From Acidimicrobiia bacterium (GTDB lineage Bacteria > Actinomycetota > Acidimicrobiia > Spongiisociales > ZC4RG35): 64,000 nt of DNA. The DNA lies in the NCBI GenBank assembly GCA_035544615.1, contig DATKEA010000017.1:1949-65948 (forward strand), read 5' to 3'. Below the pieces are notes generated by a model that had not been told where the DNA came from, ran no database searches, and saw only the letters and a list, made by a program, of their open reading frames with translations. The stretch's first letter is position 1. Every line of letters begins with the position of its first letter. Shown one piece after another: positions 47,041 through 48,451 of the stretch. A program made the translations under genes and the position numbers.

Positions 47041-47982
47041 TCAGGTGCTCGGATCGGCCGGCTCGACCCTTCCCCGCCTCATGAGGTAGGAGTGCCAGAT
47101 CACGCGTGCCGCGGTTGCTCGGATGGGTCGCCAGGGCGCGGACAGGAGCTCGAGCTCTCCCGCGTCCGGCACCGATGACATGCCGAGAACCTCGGCGGCC
47201 CCTACCTGGAGGGCGCGATCTCCCACCGGGAAGACATCGGGCAGCCCGAGCGCCGACAGCAGGTAGGCATCTGCGGTCCACGGCCCGATCCCCTTGATCG
47301 CCAGCAGTGCCTGACGCGCCCCGTGGGGTGCCTGTCCTATCAAACCCGCCAGGTCCAACTCGCCGGATCTCACCGCCCGTGCCAACCCCGTCAGATAGCC
47401 GGACTTCTGCCAAGTGACGCCGATGCCGCGGAGATCGGCTTCGGTGACCTCACTCATCCTCTCGGGAGTGATCACACCGAGAAGGCCGTGAAGTCGTCGG
47501 TACATCGCCGCGCCCGACTCGAGAGAGACCTGTTGCTCCAGGATCAACCAGACCAGTGTCGGGAATCCTGCCGGCCTGCGCCAGAAGGGGGGTACGCCAA
47601 ACTCTTCGACCACACGGCGAAATGTCGGTTCCTCCCCGATGAGGAGATGCGCCGACTCGATGAAGGTGGATTCGTCGAGTCGCTCGACTCGAGGCTCGAG
47701 GCTTTCCATCGGAACCGGGCCAAAGGAGGCCGAGTCCTCGACGCCGGCCACATGATTGTCGGAAACGACCCAGGCCTGGCCTTCGCCCATGGTGCCCTGC
47801 CCGTCGACCCGATCCCCAGGCCCCGCCACCAGCCGCTTCACCAACCAGAAGTCGTCGCGTCCCGGGTGGGGAAGAGCCACGACTTCGCCGACGAGTGGTG
47901 ACCGCGACCCAGTGGTGACGAACTCCTCACCGGGAACGAGGGTCGGCCTCATAGAGTCTTCGACAACACGGAACCTGCGCAT
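47041..47982 (-). CDS. Apparent in-frame fusion of an S26 peptidase (SodX-like, Ni-SOD maturation) with an HhH-GPD DNA-3-methyladenine glycosylase (AlkA/Mag-like)
   Basis: Residues ~1-100 carry S26 signal-peptidase-type motifs (VEDSMRPTL; WLVKRLVAGPGDRV; VSDNH..DSASFGPV). Residues ~110-313 carry the HhH-GPD fold (LILEQQVSLESGAAMYRRL ... AIKGIGPWTADAYLL ... FPVGDRAL). The gene is divergent from sodN with a 61 bp gap. Confidence 0.55.
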   Translation of the reverse strand: MRRFRVVEDSMRPTLVPGEEFVTTGSRSPLVGEVVALPHPGRDDFWLVKRLVAGPGDRVDGQGTMGEGQAWVVSDNHVAGVEDSASFGPVPMESLEPRVERLDESTFIESAHLLIGEEPTFRRVVEEFGVPPFWRRPAGFPTLVWLILEQQVSLESGAAMYRRLHGLLGVITPERMSEVTEADLRGIGVTWQKSGYLTGLARAVRSGELDLAGLIGQAPHGARQALLAIKGIGPWTADAYLLSALGLPDVFPVGDRALQVGAAEVLGMSSVPDAGELELLSAPWRPIRATAARVIWHSYLMRRGRVEPADPST

Positions 47983-48043
47983 GGAAATCGTCCCCGGAGG
48001 GTATGGTCGGATGAGTAAATCGACAAAGAACGAAGGAGTGCAA

Positions 48044-48451
48044 ATGCGACAGGTGATTGTTGCCCATGCCCACTGCGATCTCTTCTGCGGGGTCTACGAC
48101 CCGGCCCAGGCCAAGATCGAGGCGATGTCGGTGCTCAAGTCGGCCGAGAAGTACCAGGGCTCGGACGATGAGGTATTCAGGAGCCGGGCGATCACCATCA
48201 AGGAGGAACGCGCTGAGCTGGTCAAGCACCACCTGATGGTGCTCTGGGTCGACTTTTTCACGGCCGACCATCGCAAGGAGTTCCCCAACCTCGACGATCT
48301 CTTCTGGCGTGCCATCCTCCAAGCCGGGAATGCCAAGAAGTCGGTTGATCCCGAGGACGGGAAGAAGCTGGTTGCCCTGATCGACGAGATCGCCGAGATC
48401 TTCTGGCAGACCGAGAAGGCCCAGGGGGCGGGGGTCTACCCGCCTAACTAG
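48044..48451 (+). CDS. sodN: Nickel superoxide dismutase precursor
   Basis: Propeptide MRQVIVAHA followed by the Ni-hook HCDLFCGVYDPAQA. GGAG lies 8 nt upstream of the ATG. 135 aa. Confidence 0.85.
   Translation: MRQVIVAHAHCDLFCGVYDPAQAKIEAMSVLKSAEKYQGSDDEVFRSRAITIKEERAELVKHHLMVLWVDFFTADHRKEFPNLDDLFWRAILQAGNAKKSVDPEDGKKLVALIDEIAEIFWQTEKAQGAGVYPPN

Follow-up and report, generated by a model that had tools for sequence, protein, structure and literature searches.

The gene that lies divergently to sodN, the gene of a nickel superoxide dismutase (NiSOD) precursor, in a 64,000-nucleotide (nt) stretch of contig DATKEA010000017.1 of an Acidimicrobiia bacterium (hereafter the window) reads as a SodX-type S26 peptidase that continues without a stop codon into a DNA glycosylase. 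This raises the question of whether the two form one protein, or whether two adjacent genes have been merged by a lost or missed stop codon. SodX is known as a small free-standing protease, and the short AlkA-type glycosylases are known as free-standing repair enzymes. A previous interpretation of the window, made from its letters alone (the sequence-only reading), had proposed an in-frame fusion of a SodX-like S26 peptidase with an AlkA/Mag-type glycosylase beside sodN, and the sequence, profile, fold, synteny and conservation data presented below agree with it. We consider it probable (roughly 0.7) that the gene is a real, clade-specific fusion encoding a bifunctional cytoplasmic protein, in which cleavage of the SodN propeptide and excision of alkylated bases are independent, co-expressed activities.

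A single reading frame encodes two domains

The coding sequence is uninterrupted and starts with the first ATG following the upstream stop codon (coordinates of this and all other features are given in Table 1). Comparison with Pfam placed PF10502 (Peptidase_S26) at amino acids (aa) 4-60 (36.1 bits, E value 7.9e-9; gathering cutoff 22.9) and PF00730 (HhH-GPD) at aa 144-284 (42 bits; gathering cutoff 26.2). The sequence-only reading had assigned the approximately 100 N-terminal residues to the S26 type, an assignment that it tied to a match with peptidase S24/S26 models, and had described the remainder as a complete HhH-GPD domain with the catalytic aspartate in FPVGDRAL. Both descriptions were borne out, the former by the PF10502 score and the latter by the PF00730 match and by the alignment of FPVGDRAL, with Asp255, to the GD(L)AL motif of Deinococcus radiodurans AlkA2 (PDB 2yg8).

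Public databases hold fusion proteins of this kind under automatic names that each cover one half, namely "S26 family signal peptidase" at NCBI and "DNA-3-methyladenine glycosylase II" at JGI. A full-text literature search on sodX, sodN, NiSOD, glycosylase and Acidimicrobi found no publication describing a SodX-glycosylase fusion. The protein represents a new domain architecture built from known families.

Table 1. Positions of the fused gene, its modules and the neighbouring features in the window
Feature	Coordinates	Strand	Basis
Fused gene, SodX(S26)-AlkA2-type glycosylase, 313 aa	47041..47982	-	Single open reading frame, both Pfam domains, 42 full-length in-frame orthologues
SodX-type S26 peptidase module, aa 1-102, without transmembrane anchor	47677..47982	-	PF10502, TIGR02754, alignment, AlphaFold2 fold
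Catalytic Ser10 codon	47953..47955	-	Box B
Catalytic Lys49 codon	47836..47838	-	Box D
AlkA2/Mag-type HhH-GPD DNA glycosylase module, aa 103-313 and stop codon	47041..47676	-	PF00730, PDB sequence matches, Foldseek
Helix-hairpin-helix (HhH) motif GIGPWTADAYLL	aa 231-242	-	Invariant in clade
Catalytic Asp255 codon	47218..47220	-	FPVGDRAL motif
sodN, NiSOD precursor, presumed substrate of the S26 module	48044..48451	+	Sod_Ni 129.6 bits; TIGR02753 125.2 bits (cutoff 90)
SodN propeptide MRQVIVAHA, 9 residues	48044..48070	+	Precedes Ni-hook HCDLFCGVYDP
Divergent intergenic region, 61 bp	47983..48043	.	Conserved box and ribosome-binding site on the sodN strand
G(G/A)GTATGGTC box, -10-like	47999..48008	+	Approx. 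35 nt upstream of the sodN start, conserved in approx. 40 loci
AAGGAG ribosome-binding site for sodN	48033..48038	+	Spacer comparison
ACT-domain-pair protein, 133 aa	46605..47006	-	Pfam ACT; 34 nt downstream of the fusion
DUF3048 protein, 368 aa	45431..46537	-	Pfam DUF3048 and DUF3048_C; synteny
PGPGW-family small membrane protein, 62 aa	48455..48643	-	Between the methionyl-tRNA synthetase gene and the sodN 3' end

Conservation of the fused gene

A word-indexed search of 5.8 billion protein clusters (NCBI, JGI, ENA and Logan) returned more than 100 clusters with 60-91% identity to the fusion protein, nearly all of them 303-334 aa long and all but five with both Pfam domains. When one genome per species was scanned, the fused gene was found in 45 of 54 loci (51-94% identity), almost all of which came from Acidimicrobiia metagenome-assembled genomes (MAGs) obtained in soil surveys. 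Searches by tblastn with both halves and with the neighbour genes revealed that the S26 part runs on into the HhH part in the same frame at the orthologous loci, and that the gene order across the fused loci is constant: the methionyl-tRNA synthetase (MetRS) gene, sodN in the opposite orientation, and then the fusion, an ACT gene and a DUF3048 gene, all three oriented like the MetRS gene. The fusion is in frame in 42 short-read MAG assemblies, and because these orthologues were assembled independently, neither chance nor assembly can account for it. Ratios of nonsynonymous to synonymous substitution (dN/dS; Nei-Gojobori method, 13 pairs) were 0.11-0.31 for the S26 half and 0.12-0.44 for the glycosylase half; both halves are maintained by purifying selection.

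The distribution of the architecture was also examined with phmmer, in an exhaustive search of 1.84 billion cluster representatives at 50% identity, which yielded one full-length fused protein (P0171, 314 aa, 56% identity) as well as fragments. The remaining strong matches were stand-alone glycosylases that start near query residue 100 (3152 matches at E <= 1e-10). From the sequences compared, the SodX-glycosylase architecture appears to be restricted to this Acidimicrobiia clade.

Three proteins of 122-155 aa (P0121-P0123; 63-67% identity) appeared to be stand-alone S26 relatives. P0121 and P0123 were rejected as unfused relatives, since both are fused genes with frameshifts on error-prone long-read contigs, in which the glycosylase follows directly in another frame. 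The MetRS gene is split into pieces in both contigs, and in L055 the ACT and DUF3048 genes are broken too.

The records of loci L007, L014, L017, L018, L019, L036 and L044 are labelled Acidobacteriota/Acidobacteria or Boseongicola (an alphaproteobacterium) despite an Acidimicrobiia-type locus; mistaken taxonomic labels or faulty binning probably account for this. In L014, L018 and L044, sodN or the fused gene is also frameshifted.

The S26 peptidase module

The N-terminal module contains box B (DSMRPTL), box D (LVKRLVAGPGD) and box E (SDN..DS.SFGPVP) of S26 peptidases. The NCBIfam model TIGR02754 (sod_Ni_protease) matched aa 5-99 with its positions 2-88 of 90 (32.7 bits). Ser10, Lys49-Arg50 of box D and Asp83-Ser84 of box E are invariant in the 42 full-length orthologues and in a further 43 aligned database members, and the SDN motif (aa 74-76) is retained in nearly all aligned fused orthologues. 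The module could also be aligned over its entire length with 47 stand-alone SodX-like proteins (95-168 aa), in which Ser10, Lys49 and Arg50 are likewise invariant. Most of these relatives measure 95-120 aa, so that the length of approximately 140 aa given for stand-alone SodX by the sequence-only reading was too high.

An AlphaFold2 model of the module alone had a mean predicted local distance difference test score (pLDDT) of 90.2, and its top Foldseek matches were the type I signal peptidases SpsB (4wvg), SipA (4n31) and LepB (1t7d), with TMq values of 0.67-0.79; the C-terminal domains of LexA and lambda CI were weaker fold matches. The module thereby combines a profile score above threshold, the serine box B (SMxPT), the lysine box D (KR) and the beta-barrel fold by which the S26 family is recognized. 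The four nearest genuine stand-alone relatives on record (P0126, P0127, P0128 and P0134; 43-46% identity) are each encoded divergently to a Sod_Ni gene, and it is because of this homology and the conserved context of the stand-alone relatives beside Sod_Ni that we identify the module as SodX.

The glycosylase module

Comparison of the C-terminal module with PDB sequences gave 2yg8 (E 7e-25) and 2h56 (E 2e-22) as matches, with approximately 29-33% identity over query aa 115-299, and the top Foldseek matches were 2yg8, 4hsb, 2h56 and 3s6i (TMt 0.74-0.87 over approximately 205 residues); the fold matches include Mag1 and Mag2 of Schizosaccharomyces pombe. D. radiodurans AlkA2, which lacks the AlkA N-terminal domain, is an active glycosylase for 3-methyladenine, 7-methylguanine, 1-methyladenine and 3-methylcytosine (PMC5128194).

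Conserved features of the module in the 42 orthologues and 43 database members include LEQQVSLESGAA, RQK and the helix-hairpin-helix GIGPWTADAYLLS. The motif GIGPWTADAYLL and the PDVFPVGD255 that follows it are invariant in the clade; LEQQVSLES, GIGPWTAD, P-x-GD255RALQVG and WRPxR..AAR..WH.YL are invariant or nearly so across the orthologues, and the module ends in a conserved RGRxEP tail. The hairpin is followed by Trp235 (GIGPW), which is the residue of AlkA-type enzymes at this position. Trp235 and Asp255 presumably correspond to Trp218 and Asp238 of AlkA, and Trp235 appears to stand at the place in the second helix of the HhH that the catalytic lysine occupies in Nth and OGG1.

Against the AlkA equivalog model NF007641 the protein scored 27.1 bits, short of the cutoff of 229, and the match covered model positions 154-273; the S26 module occupies the place of the N-terminal TATA-binding-protein-like domain of AlkA. 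The two-lobed core without that domain and the closeness to characterized members place the module in the short AlkA2/Mag-type group.

Members of the same short glycosylase family with other N-terminal fusions were observed in other lineages, P0176 (297 aa) with a STAS domain and P0198 (389 aa) with a GrpB domain. As judged from these proteins, the family appears prone to fusions, and its combination with S26 appears confined to one clade.

The junction and the model of the whole chain

Stand-alone glycosylase homologues (205-225 aa) start at the equivalent of aa approximately 103, and because the ends of the stand-alone homologues of both modules meet there, SodX and the glycosylase are joined head to tail, essentially without a linker. 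The junction, V99-x-R-L102-D103-x-x-T106-F107, is conserved across orthologues, and in the aligned orthologues it contains neither a conserved methionine, which might serve as an internal start, nor an Ala-x-Ala or other self-cleavage site. AlphaFold2 modelling of the whole chain on the family alignment gave a pLDDT of 93.4 and a predicted template modelling score (pTM) of 0.90, which suggests that the two domains are held in a fixed relative orientation by rigid packing.

Origin of the fusion

The sequence-only reading had recommended that related loci be inspected for separate sodX and alkA genes. Stand-alone sodX genes were indeed found in outgroups; a neighbouring alkA was not. In contig L064, sodN (71% identity) is divergent from a stand-alone sodX of 157 aa, and ACT (62%) and DUF3048 (47%) genes follow. 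Between sodX and ACT (L064:1230-1949) lies a gene for a 239-aa protein that is unrelated to the glycosylase, has a hydrophobic N-terminus and matched no Pfam family significantly. In L065, SodN (82% identity) is paired with a stand-alone SodX of 105 aa. Since sodX stands alone, without a glycosylase, on sister contigs of the same backbone, the fusion is the derived state.

A glycosylase gene was not found downstream of stand-alone sodX in any of the five loci with readable flanks; the nearest stand-alone glycosylase loci (L046-L049) have no sodN, ACT or DUF3048 gene nearby; and no intermediate with separate, adjacent sodX and glycosylase genes was present among the loci examined. The closest stand-alone relatives of the glycosylase (50-55% identity) likewise come from Acidimicrobiia. 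The comparison of loci shows a gene-fusion event in the ancestor of the clade. In this single event, within a soil Acidimicrobiia subclade, a glycosylase gene would have landed directly behind sodX, with loss of the stop codon and the spacer.

Proposed activities of the two modules

According to a passage in PMC3919588 that cites Eitinger 2004, SodN requires cleavage by a cognate peptidase, which exposes His1. The AHA/HCDL junction (the slash marks the presumed cut) is conserved in all orthologous loci, and the candidate site AHA/H fits the rule of small residues at -1 and -3 of S26 enzymes. The S26 module would thus be a minimal SodX protease with a Ser/Lys dyad that removes the nine-residue SodN propeptide at AHA/H and would thereby release the amine of His1 on which the nickel hook depends. 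The glycosylase module would be a monofunctional alkylpurine enzyme of the short AlkA2/Mag type that flips the damaged base into its pocket, where Asp255 would cut the glycosidic bond. We infer both enzymatic activities, their substrates and their independence from sequence comparisons.

The Ni-hook itself (48071..48103) reads HCDL(F/Y)CGVYDP in L001-L052, L057, L061 and L062, and the aromatic residue also occurs in the stand-alone-sodX relatives examined. The hook of Streptomyces NiSOD is HCDLPCGVYDP, with a cis peptide at Pro5.

Comparison with known systems

The S26 module resembles SodX of Streptomyces coelicolor (SCO5255) and Prochlorococcus MIT9313 (TIGR02754) in being a soluble Ser/Lys peptidase of approximately 100 aa encoded divergently beside sodN, with a SodN substrate whose N-terminal propeptide ends in alanine before the HCD of the Ni-hook (PMC3919588). 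It differs from them in being the N-terminal module of a 313-aa protein, in scoring below the TIGR02754 cutoff and in the partial loss of the box D loop in many members. The loci differ further in that the SodN propeptide has nine residues here, compared with approximately 14 in the stand-alone loci examined. The propeptide of Streptomyces SodN also has approximately 14 residues.

The best sequence and structure matches of the other module, D. radiodurans AlkA2 (DR_2584, 2yg8) and the Bacillus halodurans 3-methyladenine glycosylase (2h56), likewise consist of a two-lobed HhH-GPD core that lacks the N-terminal domain of AlkA, and they have the catalytic motif GD-x-AL in common with it, but each stands alone as a protein of 205-233 aa. 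In S. pombe Mag1 and Mag2 and in Escherichia coli AlkA, the fold, the HhH motif and the place of the catalytic aspartate are the same; E. coli AlkA differs by its extra N-terminal alpha/beta domain, and Mag2 differs in not being an active glycosylase. LexA, UmuD and lambda CI also provide examples of a clan SF Ser/Lys peptidase fold and a DNA-binding module in one chain. The fusion differs from them in its reversed order of modules and in a DNA-binding part that is an enzyme and not a repressor helix-turn-helix, and no self-cleavage site is evident in it; the resemblance is one of analogy only.

Alternative explanations

Several observations weigh against an independent, bifunctional protein. 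The TIGR02754 score of the S26 module is below the equivalog cutoff of 63.25, and approximately half of the clade is without 7-14 residues of the box D loop (GPGDxVxG) just after the catalytic lysine; this deletion, seen in fused orthologues L015-L042 in the alignment columns of aa 53-66 of the window protein, leaves Ser10 and Lys49 in place and might change the peptidase activity. The high pTM and the conserved junction could equally mean that the domains cooperate, and the lack of a second stand-alone sodX or alkA is established for the 64-kb window alone, in which no second S26, HhH or SodN copy is present. The low score and the shortened loop would suit a protein with one catalytically silent module, either an S26 remnant with a short box D or a glycosylase domain that serves as a Mag2-like binder of abasic sites or DNA or as a folding and solubility scaffold for SodX, and one of the best structural matches is Mag2 (4hsb, 4b21). 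We nevertheless regard a silent module as unlikely, given that Asp255 and the HhH are invariant, that Ser10 and Lys49 are invariant even in the loop-deleted members, that dN/dS is similarly low in both modules, and that every locus has a SodN propeptide needing removal and no other conserved protease gene nearby.

The features that suggest cooperation, a junction that is conserved, has no linker and is predicted to be rigid, together with the relationship of the S26 fold to the peptidase domains of LexA and lambda CI and the strict retention of the fusion throughout the clade, would also be expected if the glycosylase placed SodX on the nucleoid or gated the protease by binding to lesions, as an inverted analogue of a LexA-type protein. 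Such functional coupling, which the sequence-only reading had suggested between SOD maturation and base repair, seems to us unlikely: the glycosylase keeps all the catalytic motifs of the stand-alone family, as an ordinary repair enzyme would, the STAS and GrpB fusions of the same family suggest opportunistic joining, and in every other lineage SodX works free-standing. It is improbable that the fusion is non-neutral in the sense that NiSOD activation is physically tied to DNA, with SodX held at the nucleoid or switched by damage and superoxide dismutase matured where or when DNA is at risk, which would pair a sensor with a protease as in LexA but in the opposite order. S26/S24 enzymes cleave behind small residues, self-cleavage occurs among LexA-type relatives, and close to the junction Ala110 is frequent within an F-x-E-A motif; the protease might accordingly release SodX and the glycosylase from a polyprotein; the -3 position of this motif is, however, variable and often large, there is neither a flexible linker nor a SodN-like AHA/H site, and the model assigns structure, with high pLDDT, to the residues of the junction, which makes this processing very improbable. 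Because the catalytic residues are invariant and a cleavage site and a linker are absent, we consider silence of one module, coupling and self-processing all less likely than two independent activities in one protein. Finally, a sequencing or assembly error, or a recent stop loss private to this sequence, that merged sodX and the glycosylase gene is scarcely credible. Relatives annotated as stand-alone S26 proteins (P0121, P0122 and P0123) would speak for it, but P0121 and P0123 are the products of fragmented long-read contigs described above, and the lost or missed stop codon that the sequence-only reading had offered as an alternative is refuted by dN/dS values well below 1 in both halves and by the recurrence of the fusion, which was seen in over 40 genomes at species level and in more than 100 clusters.

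The divergent spacer and the neighbouring genes

The fused gene and sodN are separated by a 61-bp gap; in approximately 40 loci, the orthologous spacer is typically 51-62 nt long, and in two loci it measures 79-89 nt. The conserved G(G/A)GTATGGTC box is probably the -10 element of sodN within a very short bidirectional control region. Generic scans for sigma-70 promoters and terminators between 46400 and 48800 gave no match. An Rfam scan revealed two tRNAs and nothing else.

ACT and DUF3048 genes follow the fusion on the same strand in almost every locus, and also in the outgroup L064. In the window, the gaps between the fusion, ACT and DUF3048 are about 30-70 nt, and the ACT gene may be co-transcribed with the fusion; ACT and DUF3048 may form an operon with sodX. 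A PGPGW match was observed at the equivalent position of L055, which suggests that the gene of the small membrane protein is part of the conserved block.

Significance

The analysis corrects a split in database naming, in which each automatic name describes half of the protein. We know of no solved structure of SodX, and the soluble, well-predicted two-domain protein described here is useful for the study of this peptidase. If the domains merely act side by side, the protein is an ordinary gene fusion of modest interest. Most likely, the arrangement would oblige the cell to express a base-repair enzyme 1:1 with the NiSOD system, both being served by a single short bidirectional control region. 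Conserved throughout a lineage of soil Acidimicrobiia that are abundant and uncultured, the fusion links superoxide defence to base-excision repair as a natural "Rosetta stone".

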